Positions 17,305-63,201 of a stretch of 64,000 nucleotides of DNA are shown here, one piece after another. The notes beneath the pieces were generated by a model. That model was not told the DNA's origin. It saw only the letters and a list, made by a program, of their open reading frames with translations, and did not search any database. The number at the start of each line of letters is the position of its first letter. Position 1 is the stretch's first letter. Source of the stretch: Patescibacteria group bacterium (GTDB taxonomy: Bacteria; Patescibacteriota; Dojkabacteria; J137); assembly GCA_016861265.1 (NCBI GenBank), contig BOLA01000001.1:11569-75568 (forward strand), in the 5' to 3' direction. A program made the translations under genes and the position numbers.

Positions 17305-18429
17305 TTGCAAATTTTATCTATTTTGGATGATAAAATGAAATACATGAAAAAAATAAAGGAACTTGCTAATTTTAATAAAATTATTCTTTTACTAGGTCTC
17401 CTGGTTATTTTCTTTTATCAAATCAAAGGAGGATACAACTATTTTAACTTCTCTCCCGAAGGGCAATTAATTGTATTAAGAGTGCAAGATTTTATTACTC
17501 TTGTTTTAAGTATTATTGTAGAGGCATTTCCTTTTGTAATACTAGGCGTTTCGATATCGACTTTAATTGGAATAAATTTTTTTGGCTGGCTAAAGAAAAC
17601 AACATATAACAATAAGAAGGTACTACTGCCATTATATCTGCTCTATTTTTACTCTTCAAAGATAGATAGTAAGCTTAAAAAGAACAGGATTTATTCTCAT
17701 GTTAAGGTTTCATTGTTGGGAGTTTTCTTGCCTGTGTGTGAATGTGGAAATGTTCCTGTAGCAAGAAGATTGCTCATGGGTGGCTTTACAGTATCACAGT
17801 CAATTACTTTTTTATTAGCAGCACCAATACTAAACCCTGTCACGTTTCTGACAACACTCGAGGCGTTCAATTACGATAAATCTATAGTAATTATTAGATT
17901 ATTATCAGGCTTTTTAATAGCGAACTTTATTGGAATAATATTAAGCTTTAAAAAACCGCAAAACGAATTCCTTAATTTAGATTTCTATCAGGAAATTTGT
18001 GAAATTAACGAGCATGGTCATTCAAAAAATACCTTAAAAGAAGCTTTAAATATATTTAATCGTGAATTTATTGAGATGTTTAAAGTTCTTATTATTGGTG
18101 CAGCCCTTGCTGCAGCTTCGCAAACATTTATTCCAAGAGATATTATCATTACAATTGGTCAGAATCCTGTACTTTCAATATTAGCTATGATTTTACTTGC
18201 GTTCGTAATATCGATTTGTTCAAATGTGGACGCATTCTTTGCCCTTTCTTATGTAAATAGTTTTACTATTGGTTCTGTTTTAGGTTTTCTTATATTTGGA
18301 CCAATGATAGATATAAAATTACTTACAATGCTAAGAACAACTTACAAGGCAAAGTTATTGGCAATTGTTACTCTGTTTGTATTCCTTTTCAGCTTTCTTA
18401 TTGCTTTACTAGTTAATTTTATTAAATGA
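17305..18429 (+). CDS. COG0701/DUF318-type permease with conserved CxC-G motif
   Basis: 374 aa. ~8 TM segments. VCECGNVPVARRL matches the C-x-C-G motif of this permease family. Confidence 0.7.
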   Translation: MQILSILDDKMKYMKKIKELANFNKIILLLGLLVIFFYQIKGGYNYFNFSPEGQLIVLRVQDFITLVLSIIVEAFPFVILGVSISTLIGINFFGWLKKTTYNNKKVLLPLYLLYFYSSKIDSKLKKNRIYSHVKVSLLGVFLPVCECGNVPVARRLLMGGFTVSQSITFLLAAPILNPVTFLTTLEAFNYDKSIVIIRLLSGFLIANFIGIILSFKKPQNEFLNLDFYQEICEINEHGHSKNTLKEALNIFNREFIEMFKVLIIGAALAAASQTFIPRDIIITIGQNPVLSILAMILLAFVISICSNVDAFFALSYVNSFTIGSVLGFLIFGPMIDIKLLTMLRTTYKAKLLAIVTLFVFLFSFLIALLVNFIK

Positions 18430-19265
18430 ACAAATTAATAAGCTCAGTAACATTAATGGGAATGGGATTATATGGAATACTACTATTTAACGCTAACAAA
18501 CTTGGTTTGTATATTCACCCACGTTTTTTTGAGGAATCATATATTGCAAGCATAGTTGCATTTATTATTGGCATAATCAGCTTAGTTTACTTTATATACA
18601 CTGAAAAAAATAAGTTAATAATTCAAATAAAACAAATTGTTAATAATAGAATCTTAATGATCGCTGTTTTGTTAGGACTTTCATTTTTTATTAATTCAAT
18701 ATTCTTAATAGTTGCTGCCTTAGTTGTATTAATGCCTAACAAGAACGGTATTCCAAAAGAATTTGCTTCGGCACTACTAACCCTTGGTATTATATCTATA
18801 GGACTCTTTTTACCTGCTAAAGGTCTTAGTTCTATTACAGCATCTCAAAGATCAATTGATTTAAATTCCATTAACTTAACTCAAGATACAATATCGGCAG
18901 TTCAAAACTTTAGTAAGAGTACTACAAATTTTTCTTTAGGGGATTGGATTGCAATGCAAAATTTTAATCCTGATCCGGAATTCTATGTAGATAAAGAAGT
19001 TAAGGTTTCTGGTTTTTTGTATAAACCTACTAACTTAAATTTAAATACAGAAACTGCAGTTGTAGCCCGATTCATTATTACCTGCTGCGCTGTAGATGCA
19101 AGACCTGTAGGCTTGCGAATGCAACTTATTGAAGACTCTGATTTAAAACCCGATGATTGGATTGAGGTTATAGGCAAATTTGGACTAGATAAAAATAATG
19201 AGTTAATCATATTAGCTGAAAATATTAATAAGATATCAGAACCTACAAATCCCTATATTTACTAA
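18426..19265 (+). CDS. TIGR03943/DUF1980-family membrane protein (usual partner of COG0701 permease)
   Basis: 279 aa. N-terminal TM helices. C-terminal domain has the paired-Cys motif FIITCCAVDARPVG. ATGA overlap with the upstream permease. Family name recalled from memory. Confidence 0.6.
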   Translation: MNKLISSVTLMGMGLYGILLFNANKLGLYIHPRFFEESYIASIVAFIIGIISLVYFIYTEKNKLIIQIKQIVNNRILMIAVLLGLSFFINSIFLIVAALVVLMPNKNGIPKEFASALLTLGIISIGLFLPAKGLSSITASQRSIDLNSINLTQDTISAVQNFSKSTTNFSLGDWIAMQNFNPDPEFYVDKEVKVSGFLYKPTNLNLNTETAVVARFIITCCAVDARPVGLRMQLIEDSDLKPDDWIEVIGKFGLDKNNELIILAENINKISEPTNPYIY

Positions 19266-20677
19266 TGAGAAAGGTTACTAAATTTCACAAAATTACCGCT
19301 TTAAGTATTAGTCTATTAATTACTTTAATAGTTCTATTTTTATTATTAAATACATTTGTTCATCCAAAAGTGACTTCGGTAATAATAAAAGGAGGACAAG
19401 ATTCAGCACTAATTAGAAATCAGCAAATCAGACTAGAATTTAATAGACCAATAAAGCGAGATAATATTGCTGATTATATAAAAATAAATCCTTCTATTGA
19501 ATTTAGAACAATATGGTCCGGCAATTCACTGGTGGTAATACCTAATCAGGTGCTCGATTCAGATACAAACTATAATTTAAGTATCAGCAGGGAACTAGAA
19601 GATATTTATAATGAAAAATTTATAGAAGATTTTGAATTTATATTTAAGACTGAGCAACCAAAAATAGCTTTAATTGAAAAACCTTTAAATTCAAATCAGG
19701 AAATACTTGCAATTTACAATTCTGATTTAACAAACCGACAGCAAATTCTTGTACGCGAAAATATAAAATACTTTGGAATAAACGAAAACTTTGCAGTTAT
19801 AGTAACAGAAAATAATTACTCAAATAATATTGAAATACTGAATCGAAGAACAAACGAAGTCAGAAGTCTTGACCTTGTAAATCAAAGAGTTAGTGCATTT
19901 TCGTTTTCCAGCTCCACAACAAGGAACGAATTTGCGTATACAAAACAAGACATTGAAGTAAAGGCAAATTATTATCTACCCAAATCAAAGTCCAAGATTT
20001 ACATTTATAGTCTGGATTCTTATTCACAAAATGAATTTAATCCACAGGGTACTGCAGAAGATGTTACATCGTTAGAATATTCAAATAAGGGTGAATCGTT
20101 ACTCTATAGGACTGGGGATTCATTTTATAGCATTGCTGAAAGTCAAAATCCTGAAAACTATACAGGAATCGGTAGATTTTTATCGGAAGGAAATTTTAGC
20201 AAAGATGACGATGATATTGTATTTATAGCATTCGATCCACTTAACACTTACGATAGTATTCAATTCTTAAGTGTTTTTAATTCAAACAGAGAAACTACGA
20301 AAATTGAGTCGAATAATATTCCTGTGTTAGATCCAAAGTTTAAAAATAAAACAGACAATATTGTTTATGCAGAAAGAATGAATGAACTGATAACAACTAA
20401 AGGAATATATAAAATAATGGAAACAGATTTAAAAGGCAATAAAAAGGAACTATTAGCATCGGCAGAAAACAAAAGCCTTGAGTTACCTGTGCTTAGTTTT
20501 GATGATAGATATATTGCCATTGAGCAATACACAGCTGAACAGCTTAAAGATTATCAGAATTCAAGGAATTTGGGTTTTCAAACCAAACCGCATGCAGGAA
20601 ATATAATTATATTCGATACCGTTCTTAATAAAATATACGATAATAACGTCTTAGGCTCAAGTGTACAGTGGTTATAA
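19265..20677 (+). CDS. N-terminally anchored extracytoplasmic protein, probable beta-propeller/TolB-like repeats (470 aa)
   Basis: Signal-anchor ITALSISLLITLIVLFLLL. Repetitive beta-rich composition with Asn/Ser/Tyr-rich blades. Translationally coupled (TAATG) to the DUF1980 gene. Confidence 0.5.
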   Translation: MRKVTKFHKITALSISLLITLIVLFLLLNTFVHPKVTSVIIKGGQDSALIRNQQIRLEFNRPIKRDNIADYIKINPSIEFRTIWSGNSLVVIPNQVLDSDTNYNLSISRELEDIYNEKFIEDFEFIFKTEQPKIALIEKPLNSNQEILAIYNSDLTNRQQILVRENIKYFGINENFAVIVTENNYSNNIEILNRRTNEVRSLDLVNQRVSAFSFSSSTTRNEFAYTKQDIEVKANYYLPKSKSKIYIYSLDSYSQNEFNPQGTAEDVTSLEYSNKGESLLYRTGDSFYSIAESQNPENYTGIGRFLSEGNFSKDDDDIVFIAFDPLNTYDSIQFLSVFNSNRETTKIESNNIPVLDPKFKNKTDNIVYAERMNELITTKGIYKIMETDLKGNKKELLASAENKSLELPVLSFDDRYIAIEQYTAEQLKDYQNSRNLGFQTKPHAGNIIIFDTVLNKIYDNNVLGSSVQWL

Positions 20678-20738
20678 TAATTGACTTAGGTTTCAAAAAT
20701 GATTAACTATCTTGAATACTTTTATTAATATATCCTAG

Positions 20739-21674
20739 ATGAAGAAAAGATTTGTTGTATTAACCTCCATCTCATTCCTAGTGGCTGCTGCCTTTATTAT
20801 CTTTAACCCTTTAAATGCTGCCGGTATAACAAATATTACCGTAGTTCCTGTTTCTCAAAACCAATCAACAGCTACAGATGTTGTAATAACATTTACACCA
20901 TCTACGGCAATTACAAATTCAACAATACTTATCTACTCTTACGATCCGGCTTTTACAGGTGGTGCGGCTCTAACAGATACAGATATTGCAATTTTAGGAA
21001 CTAATATAACAAGTAAAGCGTGTAGTGATTTTGTAGCGGGTTACTTTACTTGTACTTTAACAACATCGGCATCTGTTACTACACCAGTAACAACAACAAT
21101 TGGTGATACTAATCAGTTAACAACTCCATCAAGTGCGGGTAACTATAGTTTTTCAGTAACAGCTGATATAGGTGGCTTAGGAAGTACAATAGATAGCGGT
21201 GCCGGTTTGGCCTACATTTCAACAGATACTGTAAAAGAAAATGAAGTTCAAGTGACTGCTTACGTTCCGCCTAATCTTTCTTTAGAAGTATACCAAGAAG
21301 GTACTAATACAAAACTTGTAGATCCAAATAACTGCGCAATGGGGGTATTGTCTATTAATACTGTTAAAACTTGTGCCTACGATGTAGGAGTTGGTACCAA
21401 TAATGCAACAGGTGCAAGTGTTACAGTTTCTTCCGACGGGAAGTTAAGAGACAGTGCGACCGACTTTACAGATACAACGGGAGTGATTACAGCAGGTACA
21501 GAAGCTTATGGGTTTTATATTTCTACTCAAGGAACTAGGTTTAGTGCAGCCGGTTTTTTTAATACTTCTTATCAGGCTGTACCTCAATCGGGAACTCAGT
21601 TTGCTACTTCAAGTAACACTAGTGATTTACTAAATACTGCCCAACATGACCATAACTCATGCAGCCAGCATTAG
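20739..21674 (+). CDS. secreted Thr/Ser/Gly-rich surface protein (311 aa), paralogous to 22760..23908
   Basis: Cleavable signal peptide (MKKRFVVLTSISFLVAAAFIIFNPLNAAG). Blocks shared with 22760..23908 in the same order: (V)ITFTPS...; xSLEV/A; two conserved Cys. Confidence 0.55.
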   Translation: MKKRFVVLTSISFLVAAAFIIFNPLNAAGITNITVVPVSQNQSTATDVVITFTPSTAITNSTILIYSYDPAFTGGAALTDTDIAILGTNITSKACSDFVAGYFTCTLTTSASVTTPVTTTIGDTNQLTTPSSAGNYSFSVTADIGGLGSTIDSGAGLAYISTDTVKENEVQVTAYVPPNLSLEVYQEGTNTKLVDPNNCAMGVLSINTVKTCAYDVGVGTNNATGASVTVSSDGKLRDSATDFTDTTGVITAGTEAYGFYISTQGTRFSAAGFFNTSYQAVPQSGTQFATSSNTSDLLNTAQHDHNSCSQH

Positions 21675-21735
21675 TTCAGTTACACAAGTTGGTAATTATG
21701 CTCATAAGTTAACATATAGGGCATATACAAATTAA

Positions 21736-22698
21736 ATGATAACTAAGGGAAAACTCTACAGAGCAATTTTATTTATAGTCGCATTTAGTTTGACAGGCAA
21801 CTTTCTTGCTTTAGTACTTAAAGCTGCTGTTATAAGTCCCGATAAATACTACCTAGAAACTGAAAGTTCAAATCTTGATAATCAAAAATTAGTCATATAC
21901 TCTACTCCAAATCAGGAGAAGCCATTAACATACAAAATAAAACCAATTGGAGTAAAGAAAGTTGGAGAGAATAATGAGAGAATTTTCTATGAGCCCGATG
22001 CCACTAACAATCTAGATGCTGCAAATTGGATTAAAATAATTGATGATCAAGTTACTGTAAATCCAGGGGAAACAATTGAAGTAAAATGGAATTTAACACT
22101 ACCTCAAAATTCGTCTTGTGATACAAAGCTTGCAGGAATTGCGGTGTCTGAAGTTGCATCTGATAACGCAGCAGATAGTGGATCGAATGTATCCGTAAAT
22201 AATGAGGTAATCAGTCAAGTACATATTAATACAACAAGAGAAAACAACGAAAGCTGTAAGTATTATGAAGATCTTTTACTTCAAGAATTTTCAGCTACTC
22301 AGACTATACCAGTTTTCAATTACGATAATATAGAATTCACTACTTTAATAGAAAATAGATCCGATTATTTATCAAGAAACATTAAAGGTTGGTTATATAG
22401 AACTTATTGGTCTTGGAAAAAAAGAAGTAATTGAGTTTAATGATTCAAATCTTGATATCTACCCCAACTCATTAAGACGATTTAATAGTGTTTGGGTAGA
22501 CAAAGACTATCCTAGGGGAGATTTTTTACAAGAAATTATTTACGAAGTTTCTCACTTTAGATTTGGACAATACGAAGCAAGATTAGGTGTAACATTTAAT
22601 GTTAGTCCTAAGATAGTATCTTCTGTGTATGTATGGATTATTCCGTGGAAAATTGTGACTGTAGTTGCAATTATATTAGCTATAGTTATTCTAGTGGT
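21736..22698 (+). pseudogene. C-terminally anchored surface protein (third paralog of 23905/24848), interrupted at an A7 homopolymer
   Basis: The annotated ORF 21736..22434 ends ...WSWKKRSN*. The +1 frame stays open from 22352 to 22698 with no start codon. It encodes ...FRFGQYEARLGVTFNVSPKIVSSVYVWIIPWKIVTVVAIILA, which aligns with the C-terminal anchors of the next two paralogs (FTFGRFEAKLDFLYG...IYIIPIGIPVIILVVILLI). Removing one A from A7 (22417-22423) fuses the frames into a ~320-aa protein, the same size as its paralogs. Confidence 0.5.
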
Positions 22699-22759
22699 AA
22701 TTAGAGACAGGAAAATCTAGAGAACTTAAAGCGCTAAAAAGAATCTCTAAGAAAAATTA

Positions 22760-23908
22760 ATGCTTTTAGAAAAATTTAAACTAAAATTTTTAGCCTTGAT
22801 ATTACTGGCCCTATTATTCTTTGTACCAAGTGTAAAAATAGAAGCCTCAAGACTTGTAGGTATATACAATAATCTAGGCAGAATTGCTGCAAATGTGAAT
22901 TCAATGCATAGTGTTTACTTTGTATTGACCGATCCTATAAATGCTGGAGAGGCCTTTACAGTAACATTTCCATCGGCTTTTACCTTCGGATCACTTTATG
23001 ACCACACAGATATGAGCTTGGATGAGGGCTCAACTAATATCTGCGGCATAGCTACGTTTACCAATAAACCACTTGGAGCTAGCCCATCTGGTTCTACTTG
23101 GGGAGTAAATAAGAGTGGTAATACAGTATTTACTATTACTTCGGGTACAGGCACTTTAGCTACTGGCATATGTATTCGAGTGAATTTTTACACTAATGGT
23201 GCAAATCATACTGTCACTAATCCTAACGTTACCACAAATACCGTCTATAATATGACTGTCGATACCGCAACAGAGTCAGGACAACTATCTGTAATCATTT
23301 TAGGCGATTCAAGTTCAGCAAACGTAGACCAGGTTTCTTTAGAAGCAAATGTATCTACTAGTATACTAATGGGAATTGATACAGTTACATCTGATTGTAA
23401 TAACAATACTCAAACCACTCCTGCAAATCAGACAGTAAACTTTGGTCAGTTGTACCCGGGAGTACCCGTTATTAGTGGGAACTCAATTCCTTTTGTATGT
23501 ATTGAAGCGGGTACTAATTCGGTTAATGGTTTTAGAATTCTGGTACAAAGTTCAAGAGGAGATTCTATAGGCGGGCTTGTATCGGGTAGCGGAGATATTC
23601 TATCTGCAACAGCAAACCTAAATTTGTTAGGCACTACTACAGGTTATGGATTAAGAGTTTCATCGTTAGGTACAGCAACTCTGGGTAGCTTTACGGCAAC
23701 ATCACCCTTTAATTCAAGTACTCCGGGAGATATAGGACAAGTAAGTGGCAGCTCCGGTACAGCATCCCAAATTGTTAATTCAACTGCTCCAGTTAGATCG
23801 GGAAATACGGCAAGAATTGCAATAGAATTAGGAGCAAAATCGAGTACAGCTACACCTGCTGACACTTATTCAGATGTATTAACATTCACTGCATTCACAA
23901 ACTTATGA
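22760..23908 (+). CDS. secreted Thr/Ser/Gly/Asn-rich surface protein (382 aa)
   Basis: Signal peptide (LALILLALLFFVPSVKIEASR). Same block order as 20739..21674. C-terminus ...ATPADTYSDVLTFTAFTNL resembles the terminal beta-strand of WxL/SCPU-type surface beta-sandwich proteins (from memory, not verified). Confidence 0.55.
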   Translation: MLLEKFKLKFLALILLALLFFVPSVKIEASRLVGIYNNLGRIAANVNSMHSVYFVLTDPINAGEAFTVTFPSAFTFGSLYDHTDMSLDEGSTNICGIATFTNKPLGASPSGSTWGVNKSGNTVFTITSGTGTLATGICIRVNFYTNGANHTVTNPNVTTNTVYNMTVDTATESGQLSVIILGDSSSANVDQVSLEANVSTSILMGIDTVTSDCNNNTQTTPANQTVNFGQLYPGVPVISGNSIPFVCIEAGTNSVNGFRILVQSSRGDSIGGLVSGSGDILSATANLNLLGTTTGYGLRVSSLGTATLGSFTATSPFNSSTPGDIGQVSGSSGTASQIVNSTAPVRSGNTARIAIELGAKSSTATPADTYSDVLTFTAFTNL

Positions 23909-24858
23909 GGTTAAATGGTAAGTATTTAAAAGTTCTGGTAATAATTACTTTAATAATAAGTGTGTTCGCACAACCTCTTATAATCCCAATATATGCTCAA
24001 TCCGAAACTCAGAGTAATGGTAACGGAATTTCGGTGAGTCCTGTTAAGATTCAGAGAAACTTTAAAGGAAACGATAAGGACACTTTAAATTTTACACTCC
24101 TTAACAACGAGGACCAAGATATTAAACTCTCTGTTACACTGAAGAGTTTTAAACTACTAAATAACAATCAAGAAATATCCTTTGATACAACTATAGACGA
24201 AACGGTATTAAACTGGATTAGGAACTTTAAGAATTCTGTAGTTTTAAAACCGAAGGAAAAAACGGAATATAAATTAGAGCTTAATATTCCTGGAGATACT
24301 AAACCAGGAGGATATTTGTTCGGTATATTCTTTGAAACTCAAGGAAAATTTTCTGGTGTTTCTATAAAGTCCGAAACTATAATTAAGCAAAGCATAGGTG
24401 TTCCTGTTATTGTAAACATTGCTGGTGTAGAAGGTATAAGTTATGGACAGATTACTTTAGATTCCTACGATGTTAGCTATAATATAATTACTAATTCAGT
24501 AGATTTCTCTGTAGTAATCTTGAATAATAGTAATCAGATTATTACACCTACTGGTGTCATTACTATAAAAAAGGTATTTGGAACTGGACCTGAAGAATTA
24601 ACATCATCATTTAATTCGGATGGTAAACTAGTAAATGCATTTTCGCTAAGGAGTTTTACAAAAGAAGTACTATTAAATAGATTCACATTTGGAAGATTCG
24701 AAGCAAAATTGGATTTTTTATATGGATTAGAAAATAATGTGTATAGTCAAACTGTGAGTATATATATTATTCCAATCGGTATTCCAGTTATTATTCTTGT
24801 AGTAATACTTTTAATTATATTTAAATTAAGAGCAAGAAAACTATCAAGTGAAGATTAA
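23905..24858 (+). CDS. surface protein with N-terminal signal peptide and C-terminal TM anchor + basic tail (317 aa); DUF916/DUF3324-like architecture
   Basis: Signal peptide VLVIITLIISVFAQPLIIPIYAQS. ~270-aa beta-rich ectodomain. C-terminal IYIIPIGIPVIILVVILLIIFKLRARK. ATGA overlap with the upstream gene. Confidence 0.55.
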   Translation: MRLNGKYLKVLVIITLIISVFAQPLIIPIYAQSETQSNGNGISVSPVKIQRNFKGNDKDTLNFTLLNNEDQDIKLSVTLKSFKLLNNNQEISFDTTIDETVLNWIRNFKNSVVLKPKEKTEYKLELNIPGDTKPGGYLFGIFFETQGKFSGVSIKSETIIKQSIGVPVIVNIAGVEGISYGQITLDSYDVSYNIITNSVDFSVVILNNSNQIITPTGVITIKKVFGTGPEELTSSFNSDGKLVNAFSLRSFTKEVLLNRFTFGRFEAKLDFLYGLENNVYSQTVSIYIIPIGIPVIILVVILLIIFKLRARKLSSED

Positions 24859-25792
24859 AGTTCTAAGTCTAATAATTTTTTTTGTAGCATTATTACCATA
24901 TGCTTTAGTTAAAGCCGATGTTAATCAAGGCATTACACTAGCTCCCATATCTGCCGATATAAAACTAAAGGTGGAACAAGAATATAAGGGGTCTTTTACA
25001 ATAAGAAATAACGAGCAAAACAATTTAAATATAGAATTTAAAGAAGCGGATCTTAATGATGGTCAGGTTACCAACGAAAGTAATCTCTACTGGTTTAGTA
25101 TAGATTCAACTAAACATATTCTTGATGCAAACTCTGATTTACAGGTTGAATATACCGTAAAAATCCCTACAGACACCACTCCGGGTCGGTATTCAAAAGC
25201 AATTCTAATTAAATTGGTTAACACCTCTGAAGGAGAATCAACTTTTAACTTAAGCTTAACCTACGCAGTTAGTATATATGTAGAATCCTTATTTAATAAT
25301 GAGTTAGGCACTAGAATTAAGGAATTCTACTCAGATTCCAAATTAATTTTCGAGAATAAGGTGAATTTAAACCTTAACGTGGAGAACGCATCGGGGTTCT
25401 CTAAACCACTAATTAATCTAAATATAATCAACCCAAGCGGTAAGATTGTTTATACAACTGTACTTAACGAATCGCTTCAGACATTAAGAGAACAAAAAAC
25501 TTATAAAGTTACAGCATCTTGGCCTAATATTAATTTATTTGATATTGGACCATATACAGCTCAAGCATTGGTAACAGATACACTTACTGGTAAAACTTCG
25601 GTTAATAGAATAACCTTTTTTAACTTAAACTGGCTTTATTTTGGAATAATCTTACTAGTATTTGTTGGAGGGGTGTTCTTTTTAAGATTTGTTAGGGGGT
25701 TAATTAAAATTATAAAAATAAACAGAGATGTTAACTCTTCAGAAAATTTACTGGGAGTAAAAAAAGACTCTAGAAAAAGAGGAGCAAAATAG
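24848..25792 (+). CDS. surface protein paralog with N-terminal signal and C-terminal TM anchor (314 aa)
   Basis: Signal peptide LSLIIFFVALLPYALVKADV. C-terminal WLYFGIILLVFVGGVFFLRFVRG. Same architecture as 23905..24858, which it overlaps by 11 nt. Confidence 0.55.
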   Translation: MKIKVLSLIIFFVALLPYALVKADVNQGITLAPISADIKLKVEQEYKGSFTIRNNEQNNLNIEFKEADLNDGQVTNESNLYWFSIDSTKHILDANSDLQVEYTVKIPTDTTPGRYSKAILIKLVNTSEGESTFNLSLTYAVSIYVESLFNNELGTRIKEFYSDSKLIFENKVNLNLNVENASGFSKPLINLNIINPSGKIVYTTVLNESLQTLREQKTYKVTASWPNINLFDIGPYTAQALVTDTLTGKTSVNRITFFNLNWLYFGIILLVFVGGVFFLRFVRGLIKIIKINRDVNSSENLLGVKKDSRKRGAK

Positions 25793-60512: not shown

Positions 60513-60649
60513 TCTTTTATTTTATAGAAATAATAAGATAACTCCCTTATAGGCAGTAATTATCGTTATTATTATTGTTCAATTGTATTCTATTCATTTT
60601 GTTCTTTAAGTTGTATTGAGCGCGAAGTAAGTGAATAACCTCGCGCCCA

Positions 60650-60960
60650 ATGTGTTCCCTTGGCTCTCGCCTCGGGGGCTTTGTCCCCAGTCTTCTTCGA
60701 CCAGGAACCAGACTGAACGGACCGGATACCGTTGCAGGGTCGCTCTCTTGCGAGGAACGACCACTGCGGCCTTATGGGGTTATTGAATTATATAAACAAA
60801 AAAATATATACGCAACTGTTTTTTTTTATTTATGGCAAATATTTATTGAAGGTGGTAAAAGTTGGAGGCTAGCTCAAGTGCAGCCGACCTCCAACCTTCG
60901 TCTAAGGTATTCCCCTAGACACTAACGGAACCCATCAGGTCATCTGTCTACACAGTACCA
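60650..60960. ncRNA. unclassified GC-rich structured RNA candidate (two GC-rich halves separated by an AT-rich/T9 segment)
   Basis: Local GC far above the ~32% background. Perfect nested hairpins: GGGG-GCTTTGT-CCCC; CAGTCT...AGACTG; AACGG-ACCGGATA-CCGTT; GCAG-GGTCG-CTC-TCTTGC-GAG-gaa-CGACC-a-CTGC; GTTGGAGG-N19-CCTCCAAC. The only ORF here (60650..60925) is Arg/Gly/Pro-rich, a typical artefact of GC-rich non-coding sequence. Not matched by eye to RNase P (no GGAAAGUCCGG or GGGUGAAA), tmRNA (no tRNA-like 3' end) or SRP consensus. Confidence 0.4.
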
Positions 60961-61074
60961 ATGGAGAATTCCGTACTCAAGCCGTATAAAAATGATCTTG
61001 AGTAAATAAATTATATTAGTATTAAATTAACTGCGCAATATTTAAATGTATAATAAAGTATTTAAATTAAAATT

Positions 61075-61968: not shown

Positions 61969-63201
61969 ATGATAAAAAAAATATCACTTTTGATTTTAAT
62001 TTTAATAGCAGCTGTACCGGTATATGCACAGAATCTAAATTCAACTACATATACTTTAATTGCACCCTCTATTGATTCTAATTCAGGAATATCGAATTCA
62101 ACTAACTATTCAATACTGCAAGATTCCTCACCTGTGGATGATTACATTACAACGAGTTCAACCTACAGATTTACCGGAGGAACTGCTGAGTTTATAGAAG
62201 CAAAAACGCCATCTATAATATGTTTTGAAACATCAACTAATAGTAGCACTACAACCTGTACAGGAGTACCTGGAGGAGATGGAATGAGAGGCGTTTGTTC
62301 TAGTCCAGGTTGCTACGATAGGGCAAAACTGGAATTTAACACGCAAAATAACAGCGACGATGTTAAATATGCGATTCAAATAGCAACTAACGCAGCTTTT
62401 ACAACAGGAGTACAGTATATAAGTGGTGCCAGCCATACTCCAAAGGCTACATTAACCCTTTCAGATTTTCTATATCAATGCGAGTGGGAAGGTAATATCT
62501 ATTCATCATACTGTGTATCTACAAATACCACATACCAAAAATACAATATTCTTGGATTAACGCATGGGACTCTTTACTATATAAGAGTAGCTGCACTTAA
62601 AGGTTCAACCTCAGCTGCTAATTTTACCCAAAGTGATTGGAGTGCATCTGCAACTGCTACGACACAAAATACAACCATTAGTTTTGATATTGATATTGCT
62701 CCAAATTCATCAACACCGACTAATCCTCCTTACGCATTAAGAAATATAAATATAATCCCTGAAAGTACATTTGTATCTGATGATTATTTATTCTTAAAAT
62801 CAACTACGAATGCATTAAATGGAGTTTATGTTACTGCATCTGTTGCCGGTAGTTTGTTATACAATAATATTACAGGAGACACCATAGATACTTATTCCGG
62901 AGACCTAGATACACAGGCCAGTGGTTGGGGAATAATTAATATAACAGCAACAAATTCTGCTTCAAACACAGCAAACCTAGGAGATATAATTATTTATACT
63001 TTTCCAGTTGATTTTACGGAAACAGGTGCCGCGAACAAAGTTGGTGGACTATTAACTTCACCAAGACCCCTATTTTATTCGGATCTAAAACCATTGTACA
63101 ATGGAGTTGCAGGTTTTAAGTTTAAAGCCAGAACCGATTATAGCAAGCCAGCCGGGCAATATAGCCAGACAATGTATATAAACGTAGCAACTCTTAACTA
63201 A
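61969..63201 (+). CDS. secreted Thr/Ser/Asn-rich surface protein (410 aa)
   Basis: Signal peptide ISLLILILIAAVPVYAQN. Cys pairs near the N-terminus. Beta-rich repeats. C-terminal ...KPAGQYSQTMYINVATLN resembles the terminal strand of 22760..23908. Confidence 0.55.
   Translation: MIKKISLLILILIAAVPVYAQNLNSTTYTLIAPSIDSNSGISNSTNYSILQDSSPVDDYITTSSTYRFTGGTAEFIEAKTPSIICFETSTNSSTTTCTGVPGGDGMRGVCSSPGCYDRAKLEFNTQNNSDDVKYAIQIATNAAFTTGVQYISGASHTPKATLTLSDFLYQCEWEGNIYSSYCVSTNTTYQKYNILGLTHGTLYYIRVAALKGSTSAANFTQSDWSASATATTQNTTISFDIDIAPNSSTPTNPPYALRNINIIPESTFVSDDYLFLKSTTNALNGVYVTASVAGSLLYNNITGDTIDTYSGDLDTQASGWGIINITATNSASNTANLGDIIIYTFPVDFTETGAANKVGGLLTSPRPLFYSDLKPLYNGVAGFKFKARTDYSKPAGQYSQTMYINVATLN

Follow-up and report, generated by a model that had tools for sequence, protein, structure and literature searches.

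The closest described system is the Pam pilus of Ca. Mycosynbacter amalyticus, which comprises the pilins PamA and PamB, the anchored chaperones PamC and PamD, and PamT, PamE and PamR (Troman et al., bioRxiv 2026, 10.64898/2026.03.03.709456). Polymers of PamA and PamB have been shown by cryo-EM, and the chaperone function of PamC and PamD is a prediction in that work too; PamT is described as a single-domain tip pilin and PamR as an RbmA-like terminator and anchor. The Pam pilins are reported to be limited to CPR bacteria, they carry paired cysteines and are best conserved at the linker and in the C-terminal domain, and pamA is reported from an ATP-synthase neighbourhood (Troman et al.). In the Lactobacillales and Bacillales, WxL clusters contain at least two WxL-domain proteins (PF13731, with dual W-x-L motifs), often a small LPXTG protein, and a WxLIP made up of DUF916 (PF06030), DUF3324 (PF11797) and a TM helix (Hassan et al. 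2023, PMC10599100; PDB 9i1y). One strand of the WxLIP is predicted to complete the sandwich of the WxL domain (PMC10599100).

The window analysed here, a stretch of 64,000 nucleotides, contains a locus that very probably represents a Pam-type donor-strand-exchange pilus operon of a CPR genome, in which pilins are paired with membrane-anchored chaperones. Two families of exported proteins, which we call S-type and A-type, alternate across positions 20739-25792; the S-type proteins correspond to Pam pilins and the A-type proteins resemble PamC and PamD in design, so that we regard the locus as a divergent version of the known Pam system and not as a novel one. The present analysis established homology-based family membership, the domain plan, the order of the genes, S-A pairing and the mutations, and the filament structure and donor-strand exchange are taken from the preprint, where they concern PamA and PamB (cryo-EM). 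The features are as follows.

19265..20677, + strand: 470-aa N-terminally anchored protein with a Big_5 Ig-like domain (PF13205, E 8.6e-8)
20739..21735, + strand: S1, predicted Pam-type pilin of the S1a type, disrupted (ORFs, three-frame translation, indel mapping against the related locus L008)
21736..22760, + strand: A1, membrane-anchored chaperone-like gene, chimeric and disrupted (windowed identity, blastn/megablast, indel list)
22760..23908, + strand: S2, predicted Pam-type pilin, intact (signal peptide, BslA/YweA-like Ig domain, linker, C-terminal domain)
23905..24858, + strand: A2, intact membrane-anchored two-Ig-domain protein, a putative chaperone of PamC/D-like and WxLIP-like type
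24848..25792, + strand: A3, second anchored two-domain paralogue, following A2 (hhalign, hydrophobic segment, conservation)
61969..63201, + strand: S3, unlinked PamT-like or pilin-like protein (profile-profile and family HMM matches)

Gene order and its conservation

An earlier description of this DNA, made by reading the sequence alone, had listed six consecutive plus-strand genes with N-terminal signals; all six are present in the ORF list with an N-terminal hydrophobic segment in each, and A1 to A3 have in addition a C-terminal hydrophobic segment and basic residues. A motif scan of the locus proteins found no LPXTG motif, lipobox or type IV prepilin motif. Upstream lie an ArsP_1 permease and a DUF1980/TIGR03943 protein, which confirms the COG0701-type permease and DUF1980 assignments made earlier, and a GldG-like ABC system forms the other flank. 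These flanks differ from the ATP-synthase neighbourhood of pamA, and when window ORFs of 100 aa or more were scanned with simple sequence motifs, none matched F1 alpha/beta or the c-ring. The gene at 19265..20677 is translationally coupled to DUF1980 and is conserved directly upstream of S1a in five relatives (L001, L003, L005, L006 and L008). Its product had been described as an anchored beta-propeller; the N-terminal anchor holds, but the Big_5 domain is the sole domain detected. This protein has no sequence match in the PDB and is unrelated to the Ig-like protein encoded ahead of the Pam genes in the distant locus L011, and its place in the pilus system is uncertain.

In five related genomes, whose records are titled Saccharibacteria, the order S1a-A1a-S1b-A1b-S2-A2-A3 is kept, the orthologues being 36-72% identical to the window proteins, and A3 is likewise the final gene of the cluster in L001, L003, L006, L007 and L008. 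Adjacency of S-type and A-type genes is found again in the distant CPR loci L010, L004 and L011, and in looser form in L009, a Kaiserbacteria genome (the titles of related loci name Saccharibacteria and Kaiserbacteria); across very distant loci, S-type profile E-values range from 1e-21 to 1e-40. In L011 a PamT-like gene, whose product reaches 182.5 bits against NF058579 and 138.6 bits against NF058581, is followed by a pilin and then by an A-type gene. Within the window, start and stop codons overlap between S2 and A2 (4 nt) and between A2 and A3 (11 nt). This conservation of neighbourhood bears out the earlier suggestion of a modular surface assembly, as opposed to random hypotheticals. One could still suppose that these are lineage-specific surface-protein paralogues, adjacent by chance and forming no functional unit: the families are small, a set of 5.8 billion clusters yielding 12-13 close relatives for each, every relative is named 'hypothetical', and one module is in decay. 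However, chance adjacency does not account for S-A pairs that recur across very distant CPR loci, for the overlapping start and stop codons, or for an order kept across orthologues so diverged; we give this already disfavoured explanation next to no chance of being correct.

S-type proteins and the Pam pilin family

S1 and S2 share a signal peptide, a BslA-like Ig domain, a linker and a C-terminal beta domain with a conserved final strand. In S2 the BslA/YweA-like Ig domain covers residues ~30-183, a conserved linker with a candidate donor strand ~184-200, and the C-terminal domain is an incomplete Ig-like fold whose last residues are YSDVLTFTAFTNL; there are two conserved Cys pairs. The predicted structure of S2 has two domains and a disordered linker, the C-terminal domain being at lower confidence. 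Direct comparison of S1 and S2 by BLASTP yields just 34% identity over 89 C-terminal residues, but hhalign aligns the S1a and S2 subfamilies over 322 columns with 89.5% probability, and a bridging protein connects them at 97-99.6%. As judged from these profile comparisons, the paralogy of the secreted pair, noticed earlier, is full-length.

None of the window proteins passes a curated cut-off of NCBIfam. Reconstructed S1 matches NF058581 (CPR_Pam_pilin_C, cut-off 55 bits) with E 9.8e-5 and 22.5 bits, residues 195-329 aligning to positions 2-145 of the 148 in the profile, and neither S2 nor S3 is matched directly. The window pilins are thus too diverged for the cut-offs that describe the Pam families, and they are assigned to the family through intermediate relatives and by comparison of profiles. 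Searching with the S-type profile brings up CPR proteins, two of which lie above the NF058581 cut-off (P0037, 90.3 bits; P0028, 79 bits), while five further retrieved relatives, together with S1 of the window, match the whole domain below it. Against the set that passes NF058581, hhalign gives 97.3% for S1a, 96.7% for S1b and 96.8% for S2 (E 2.6e-10, 340 columns); the A2 control gives 0.4%. On this homology the S-type proteins belong with the Pam pilins of CPR bacteria. They resemble the described pilins in being Sec-exported and two-domain, with an N-terminal beta-sandwich, a single linker strand and a truncated Ig-like C-terminal domain; paired cysteines, the CPR host, the lack of an usher and a PamT-like relative in the genome are further points of likeness. 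The earlier statement that no member has an identifiable function is superseded by this assignment.

The N-terminal domain invites comparison with BslA and YweA, the biofilm hydrophobins of Bacillus, and a film on the cell surface, a hydrophobic coat or sheath like that of BslA, which the S proteins would form through this domain and to which the A proteins would be unrelated anchors, would be in keeping with the weak PF17735 matches that six of the 18 S-type proteins show (best E 2.3e-5). All of these matches nonetheless fall under the 38.7-bit Pfam cut-off and are confined to the N-terminal domain, while conservation among the S-type proteins is highest at the linker and C-terminal domain. 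BslA has neither a C-terminal pilin domain nor a partner chaperone, and a coat leaves the conserved pairing with PapD-like anchored proteins unexplained, so that we consider it very improbable.

S3, which lies 36 kb away, had been called a homologue of the secreted proteins, and this is upheld by comparison of families: hhalign between the S3 and S-type families gives 99.25% (E 5e-20), whereas S3 as a single sequence reaches just 40.7%. The S3-family HMM also matches S2 at 1.8e-23 in the local set. S3 is thus, by homology, a relative of the S-type proteins over the linker and C-terminal domain. The family numbers 112 representatives, and 19 of 52 members match NF058579 PamT (best 2.6e-9, all below its cut-off of 240 bits), with three matching NF058581; S3 itself has no NCBIfam match. 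Unlike PamT, S3 is distant from the pilin genes, larger (410 aa) and equipped with an fn3-like insert; it also has an N-terminal SxNY-repeat region and a Pam-type C-terminal domain. A role at the tip would be in keeping with its PamT-like relatives.

A-type proteins and proposed filament assembly

A1, A2 and A3 consist of a signal peptide, two Ig-like domains, a C-terminal TM helix and a basic tail (in A3, the hydrophobic segment spans residues 255-289). The sequence-only reading had noted homology in their last ~45 aa; hhalign extends it (A1a-A2, 95.3%; A2-A3, 96.8% over 262 columns; S-versus-A control pairs, 1-6%), and by these comparisons the three are homologous across their full length. 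As two-domain proteins with a PapD/FimC-like fold and a C-terminal membrane anchor, adjoining the pilin genes, they match the design of PamC and PamD, and by analogy they would act as chaperones; their resemblance to PapD is structural only, and the locus proteins have no Pfam match to PF00345, PF02753, PF00419 or an usher.

A second relationship is with the WxLIP proteins, which have the same architecture. The A-type profile matches PDB 9i1y at E 4.9e-6, a three-sequence WxLIP HMM matches A1 at 7.5e-8 in the local ORF set, and hhalign aligns the A-type family with WxLIP over 264 columns at 97.4%, although by subfamily the probability is 92% for A1b, 85% for A1a and 2-5% for A2 and A3. Pfam scores stay under the gathering scores: PF06030 is found in 5 of 21 A-type proteins at sub-threshold level (20.4 bits against 27.3; A1, E 0.024), and PF11797 in none. 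The profile evidence indicates that the A-type proteins are sequence homologues of the Firmicute WxLIP (DUF916/DUF3324), a point that goes beyond Troman et al., so that the earlier guess of a WxL-DUF916-like complex was half right, standing for the DUF916 part and being unsupported for the WxL part.

This homology raises the prospect of non-filamentous display, in which WxLIP-like A proteins would hold S adhesins 1:1 by strand complementation and no polymer would form. Encoding of the secreted partner by a neighbouring gene is common to both systems, the 1:1 pairing of S and A genes suits a stoichiometric complex, the WxLIP is itself predicted to donate a strand, and the motifs 'GTTTGYGLRV' or 'TNxxxGFxIxV' and 'YxxxLTFxA' bear a degenerate resemblance to the WxL motifs 'D.RGTxAGWxLxV' and 'YxxTLxWxLxxxP'. 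However, the S-type C-termini are not detectably of the WxL/SCPU type once proposed for them: PF13731 is absent at E<=10 from 25 S-type proteins, hhalign of the C-terminal domain against nine WxL domains gives 0.2-25%, and PF05229 appears in one of 18 S-type proteins at E 0.23. The locus also differs from WxL clusters in its lack of an LPXTG protein and in its CPR host, which is not a Firmicute. As the S proteins are homologous to pilins that include the polymerising PamA and PamB, and as their conserved linker suits a donor strand, simple display seems unlikely. With the S proteins placed by homology among the Pam pilins, the locus is read neither as a sheath nor as a WxL cluster; it is best interpreted as a pilus built by donor-strand exchange, with chaperones anchored in the membrane.

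For such a pilus, we propose that the S proteins would be Sec-exported pilins and the A proteins PapD-like chaperones of two Ig domains, tethered to the cytoplasmic membrane by the C-terminal helix. The open groove of a freshly exported pilin would be capped by one strand of an A protein, which the linker strand of the next pilin would then displace by donor-strand exchange, producing a thin linear filament with neither usher nor outer membrane. S3 is a candidate tip subunit, and A3 or A2 may serve as terminator and membrane anchor; A3 could be another chaperone or, in the manner of PamR, a terminator and anchor, and any such anchor role, like host contact as the function of the filament, is suggested by the model. 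The scheme recalls chaperone-usher systems (Pap/Fim, Csu, CFA/I) in the incomplete Ig fold of the pilin, in its conserved C-terminal strand of the type 'G.Y...(T/V)F.(A/V)' and in the presumed donor-strand exchange, but the chaperone here is membrane-anchored, and the donor strand would be the linker that joins the two domains inside the pilin and not an extension of the N-terminus. The locus departs from Pam itself in its layout, a tandem series of pilin-chaperone pairs, (S-A)x2-3, with one more A gene after them, and an equivalent of PamR or PamE was not identified for it.

Decay of the S1/A1 module

A further difference from Pam is that one module of the locus is pseudogenised. A frameshift had been recognised in A1 and is confirmed, but S1 is frameshifted as well, which had been missed, and A1 is additionally a chimera. 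Mapping against L008 places a 2-bp deletion in S1 near 21646, which moves the last ~29 codons, conserved terminal strand included, to another frame; the true C-terminus (...VGNYAHKLTYRAYTN) is found in the shifted frame and ends at 21735. In A1, the four bases GGTT are duplicated near 22387 and 2 bp have been lost near 22713. Identity to the orthologues of A1a and A1b, measured in windows along A1, shows that its 5' part is A1a and its 3' end A1b, with the junction near 22531-22594, and comparison with L007 and L008 (blastn/megablast) identifies a 2.2-kb deletion that joins the two paralogous chaperone genes; relatives have S1b between A1a and A1b, and here it is absent. The S1/A1 module, the decay of which is again a point beyond the preprint, has thus suffered three small frameshifts and the 2.2-kb deletion and is inactivated in this genome, so that S2-A2-A3 alone is intact.

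Layout and gene order of the surface locus

Against a G+C content of 29-37% across the window, a plus-strand series of genes closes with five that encode two kinds of protein in alternation, one secreted (S) and the other anchored at its C-terminus (A):

17305-25792, plus strand: ArsP_1 permease, DUF1980/TIGR03943 protein, 470-aa N-anchored Big_5 protein, then the five S/A genes
from 20739, plus strand: S1, secreted
from 21736, plus strand: A1, C-terminally anchored
22760-23908, plus strand: S2, secreted
23905-24858, plus strand: A2, C-terminally anchored
24848-25792, plus strand: A3, C-terminally anchored

The S2 and A2 genes overlap by 4 nt, and A2 and A3 by 11 nt. Every S and A protein has the N-terminal hydrophobic segment that the sequence-only reading had described, and the A proteins possess an additional C-terminal hydrophobic segment and a basic tail. 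A motif search of the S and A proteins found no LPXTG motif, lipobox or type IV prepilin motif; since prepilin motif and lipobox are both missing, we rejected a reading as type IV pilins or lipoproteins, and S-layer homology was likewise set aside, having no match in profile searches of the locus and S-type proteins. Neither of the unrelated families against which the sequence-only reading had been set, ordinary lipoproteins and S-layer homology, is thus matched. A promoter and terminator scan was uninformative because shuffled sequence gave more sites than the locus itself.

BLASTP reveals weak similarity within each kind (A1-A2, 23% identity over 273 aa; A2-A3, 22% over 294 aa; S1-S2, 34% over 89 aa). 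The signal is much stronger in hhalign comparisons of orthologue alignments drawn from related loci, in which S1a and S1b, and A1a and A1b, are distinct subfamilies.

Table. hhalign probabilities between subfamilies of secreted and anchored proteins
A1a and A2: 95.3%
A2 and A3: 96.8%
S1a and S2: 89.5%, 322 columns
S2 and the bridging pilin of comparison locus L004: 99.6%
S1a and the L004 bridging pilin: 97.0%
S-versus-A controls: 1-6%

On these probabilities the anchored proteins are homologous end to end, and not solely in the last ~45 aa for which this had been claimed, while the paralogy of S1 and S2 is upheld both directly and through the bridging pilin; homology was found, therefore, among the anchored and between the secreted proteins alike.

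Close relatives are scarce (12-13 clusters among 5.8 billion), all are named 'hypothetical' and none of these clusters contains a Pfam domain. Five contigs nevertheless share the order MutS, small ORF, ArsP_1, DUF1980, Big_5(470), S1a, A1a, S1b, A1b, S2, A2, A3, so that related genomes do preserve the arrangement; a convergent ABC-type transporter lies 3' of A3 in all five, and its DUF4340 gene is present in four (L003 being the exception). A profile of the S proteins retrieves far more distant CPR proteins, one of them in a complete Kaiserbacteria genome, and in these distant loci an A-type gene directly follows the S-type gene (L010, L011, L004) or lies nearby (L009). The conserved unit is the S-A pair, and the original observation of a modular surface assembly was sound.

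Relationship of the secreted proteins to Pam pilins

Cryo-EM has yielded the structure of filaments from the Saccharibacterium Ca. Mycosynbacter amalyticus (Troman et al., bioRxiv 2026, 10.64898/2026.03.03.709456). In PamA and PamB an N-terminal sandwich of nine strands is joined by a single linker strand to an Ig-like C-terminal domain that is truncated, and the subunits polymerise as each gives its linker strand to the following one; the same operon also contains genes for two PapD/FimC-like chaperones that carry a TM helix at the C-terminus, PamC and PamD, as well as for PamE, for PamT, a tip protein of one domain, and for PamR, which is anchored and RbmA-like (Troman et al., bioRxiv 2026).

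Nine of 25 S-type relatives match NF058581 (CPR_Pam_pilin_C, NCBIfam 'Pam pilus system'), and two of the 25 (P0037, 90.3 bits; P0028, 79 bits) exceed its cut-off of 55 bits. Over the full domain, reconstructed S1 reaches 22.5 bits, below that cut-off, and S2 has no direct match to NF058581 in the NCBIfam search; when aligned by hhalign with proteins that pass NF058581, the S2, S1a and S1b subfamilies give 96.7-97.3%, against 0.4% for the control. In L011 the S-type pilin gene is preceded by one that scores 182.5 bits with the PamT model NF058579 and 138.6 bits with NF058581. The two-domain plan of Pam pilins, with a linker between the domains, is matched by the AF2 model of S2: the N-terminal sandwich is confident (pLDDT 80-96), residues 187-198 are disordered, and the C-terminal beta domain is of lower confidence. 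Sequence searches with S2 and the S-type profiles of a PDB set that contains no Pam structures returned chance matches only.

These similarities identify the locus as a probable diverged Pam-type pilus operon, which would therefore be one more member of the kind described in 2026. Its members had been credited with no identifiable function; by homology and by description, the S proteins can now be regarded as putative Pam pilins and the A proteins as PamC/PamD-like. Pam pili are thought to make the first contact of parasitic CPR bacteria with their hosts; sequence annotation does not see them, which is why their recognition had to await cryo-EM in 2026. The family extends well below the curated NCBIfam cut-offs, and there is a whole Saccharibacteria lineage with a tandem pilin-chaperone version; annotation pipelines still say 'hypothetical'.

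The N-terminal domain of the pilin (S2 residues ~30-183; window 22850-23310) is BslA/YweA-like, folded as in the biofilm hydrophobin of Bacillus. The host envelope that Pam pili are proposed to touch is hydrophobic and rich in mycolic acids (Troman et al., bioRxiv 2026), and this proposal, combined with the fold, makes hydrophobic-surface binding a candidate role for the domain.

A homologous secreted protein had also been noted 36 kb away:

61969-63201: S3, distant relative of S1 and S2

This relationship is visible only with a family profile, the single S3 sequence matching the S profile weakly (40.7% probability). The S3 family has 112 representatives, and its alignment with the S family, which spans the linker and C-terminal domain, reaches 99.25% probability (E 5e-20). 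The S3-family HMM finds S2 at 1.8e-23 in a local ORF set, and 19 of 52 members match the PamT model below cut-off. S3 would therefore be a PamT-like or pilin-like protein. BLASTP gave no significant match between S3 and a PamT-like protein; S3 contains an fn3-like insert (a weak PF00041 match), and no chaperone gene was found beside it. Short 'S-x-N-Y/F-x-L' repeats were seen by eye after the signal peptide of S3 (window 61969-62220) and of the PamT-like protein of L011 (7211-7450), and the S3-family consensus has repeats too (xSxNYxxxxxxxxxGGxxxxSxNY).

Putative anchored chaperones and the WxL clusters

The A proteins fit the published account of PamC and PamD, to which we liken them by description, and several PapD-family chaperones show structural likeness to the A type (EcpB 12.1, CfaA 11.6, CsuC 10.8, YadV 10.6, SafB 10.5, FimC 10.4, PapD 10.0). 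A profile of 21 A-type proteins has one significant match in the PDB, at E 4.9e-6, to EfmWxLIP1 (9i1y), an example of WxLIP, the anchored DUF916/DUF3324 protein of Firmicute WxL clusters; the next match is at E 0.27. WxLIP is reached only by the pooled profile, an A2-only profile finding nothing in the PDB. When the A-type set was aligned by hhalign with three plasmid-borne WxLIPs (L012 5644-6663, L013 5665-6747, L014 5659-6699) the probability was 97.4% (E 9.5e-12) over 264 columns, covering both domains and the TM helix, and among local ORFs an HMM of those three sequences found the window's A1 at 7.5e-8. Sub-threshold PF06030 matches recur at identical profile coordinates in A-type proteins of distant loci. 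Most of the WxLIP signal is due to the A1 subfamilies (hhalign, A1a 85% and A1b 92%; A2 and A3 alone, 2-5%). Similarity is highest across the strand-loop-strand with which WxLIP is predicted to enter the WxL domain; the equivalent loop in the A2 model (residues 149-157) is disordered.

The anchored Pam-type chaperones (window 21736-25792) are thus likely homologous in sequence to the WxLIP of Firmicutes (DUF916/DUF3324 plus TM helix). The proposed WxL-DUF916-like complex stands in its DUF916-like part, for the anchored proteins, but is unsupported in its WxL part. Among S-type proteins a Pfam search produced no PF13731 match at E<=10, and hhalign of the S C-terminal domain against nine WxL domains from Enterococcus and Lactococcus plasmids gave probabilities of 0.2-25%, no setting (full-length, C-terminal domain only, or low mact) being significant; a WxL domain in the S proteins was rejected on these grounds, and SCPU, with one marginal match, fell with it, so neither likeness claimed for the secreted C-termini was supported. 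There is a colinear motif resemblance between S and WxL (FG followed by TNxxxG(F/Y)xVxV versus TDxRGxxxGWxLxV, and YxxxLT(F/Y)xA versus YxxTLxWxL), which we treat as a lead only.

We consider it possible, if rather doubtful, that the CPR Pam machinery and the Firmicute WxL/WxLIP clusters branched from a single ancient monoderm system, which may have combined a membrane-anchored two-Ig-domain chaperone with a secreted beta-sandwich subunit bearing an open groove. The profile alignments lend support to the chaperone half of this link, which would tie an organelle specific to the CPR to a Gram-positive virulence cluster that is well known but mechanistically unclear. Were the subunit half also true, and the WxL domain a diverged pilin C-terminal domain, WxL proteins might assemble or polymerise by donor-strand exchange, and the origin of Pam pili could be traced outside the CPR. 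The likely WxLIP homology of the chaperones goes beyond the Pam preprint (Troman et al., bioRxiv 2026), which mentions neither WxL nor DUF916. In the literature searched, WxL proteins were not tied to donor-strand exchange, both terms co-occurring only in a 2013 general review.

Other anchored proteins accompany Pam genes in distant loci. Beside them (L010 9102-11938; L009 6423-7529 and 10306-11331) lie proteins anchored at the C-terminus that give weak cohesin-like and OmpL47-type matches, and Big_6 proteins whose C-termini look dockerin-like (one faint Dockerin_1 match in an L009 protein, others by eye); these could represent a cohesin-dockerin-style surface module that other CPR lineages possess alongside Pam pili.

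Decay of the first module and neighbouring features

The window is ~91-92% identical in nucleotide sequence to L008 but without 2.2 kb of it, the alignment leaping from L008 6388 (in A1a) to 8624 (in A1b). The window's A1 is A1a-like for ~290 residues and then, over its final ~50, shares 97-100% identity with A1b orthologues; a 2.2-kb deletion has fused the paralogous A1a and A1b and removed S1b. Three small lesions are also present:

near 21646: 2-bp deletion, through which the conserved terminal strand of S1 leaves the reading frame
near 22387: GGTT tandem duplication (4 bp)
near 22713: 2-bp deletion

The latter two lie in A1, the gene at 21736 that had been noted as frameshifted. None of the three is a change of homopolymer length, the corresponding module is intact in closely related contigs, and A1b is an intact gene in L007, a 95.5%-identical contig. 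We read the first modules (window 21640-22760) as genuinely decayed; for the deletion, an assembly collapse of tandem paralogues is a possible alternative. S2-A2-A3 is still intact. Deletion between paralogous chaperone genes, together with three frameshifts, suggests fast turnover of the pilin repertoire, and the locus offers a natural example of module loss.

The ArsP_1/DUF1980/Big_5 trio had been thought to feed the surface block. It is indeed translationally coupled and kept in close relatives, but the full trio is missing from distant Pam loci, and we do not count it, nor the convergent GldG-like ABC system, within the pilus system. The 470-aa Big_5 protein has no PDB match and shows no relation to the Ig-like protein encoded ahead of the L011 Pam genes, with which kinship had been considered. 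Split ArsP_1 genes do occur upstream of S-S-A genes in L004 (427-1402; GCA_964441665.1; compare window 17305-19265), and the presence of ArsP_1 upstream of S/A genes in close relatives and in this distant locus may reflect either chance or a loose association.

Elsewhere in the window there is a non-coding stretch of ~400 nt between tRNA-Asn and the next ORF:

60580-61010, minus strand likely: non-coding stretch with a core (60600-60799) of 51-52% G+C, against a background of 32%

At gathering score it matches no Rfam family, and ARAGORN does not call it a tmRNA. Folding of the minus strand yields -153.6 kcal/mol (z = -8.2 versus shuffles), compared with z = -3.8 for the plus strand, and the stretch is probably a structured RNA.
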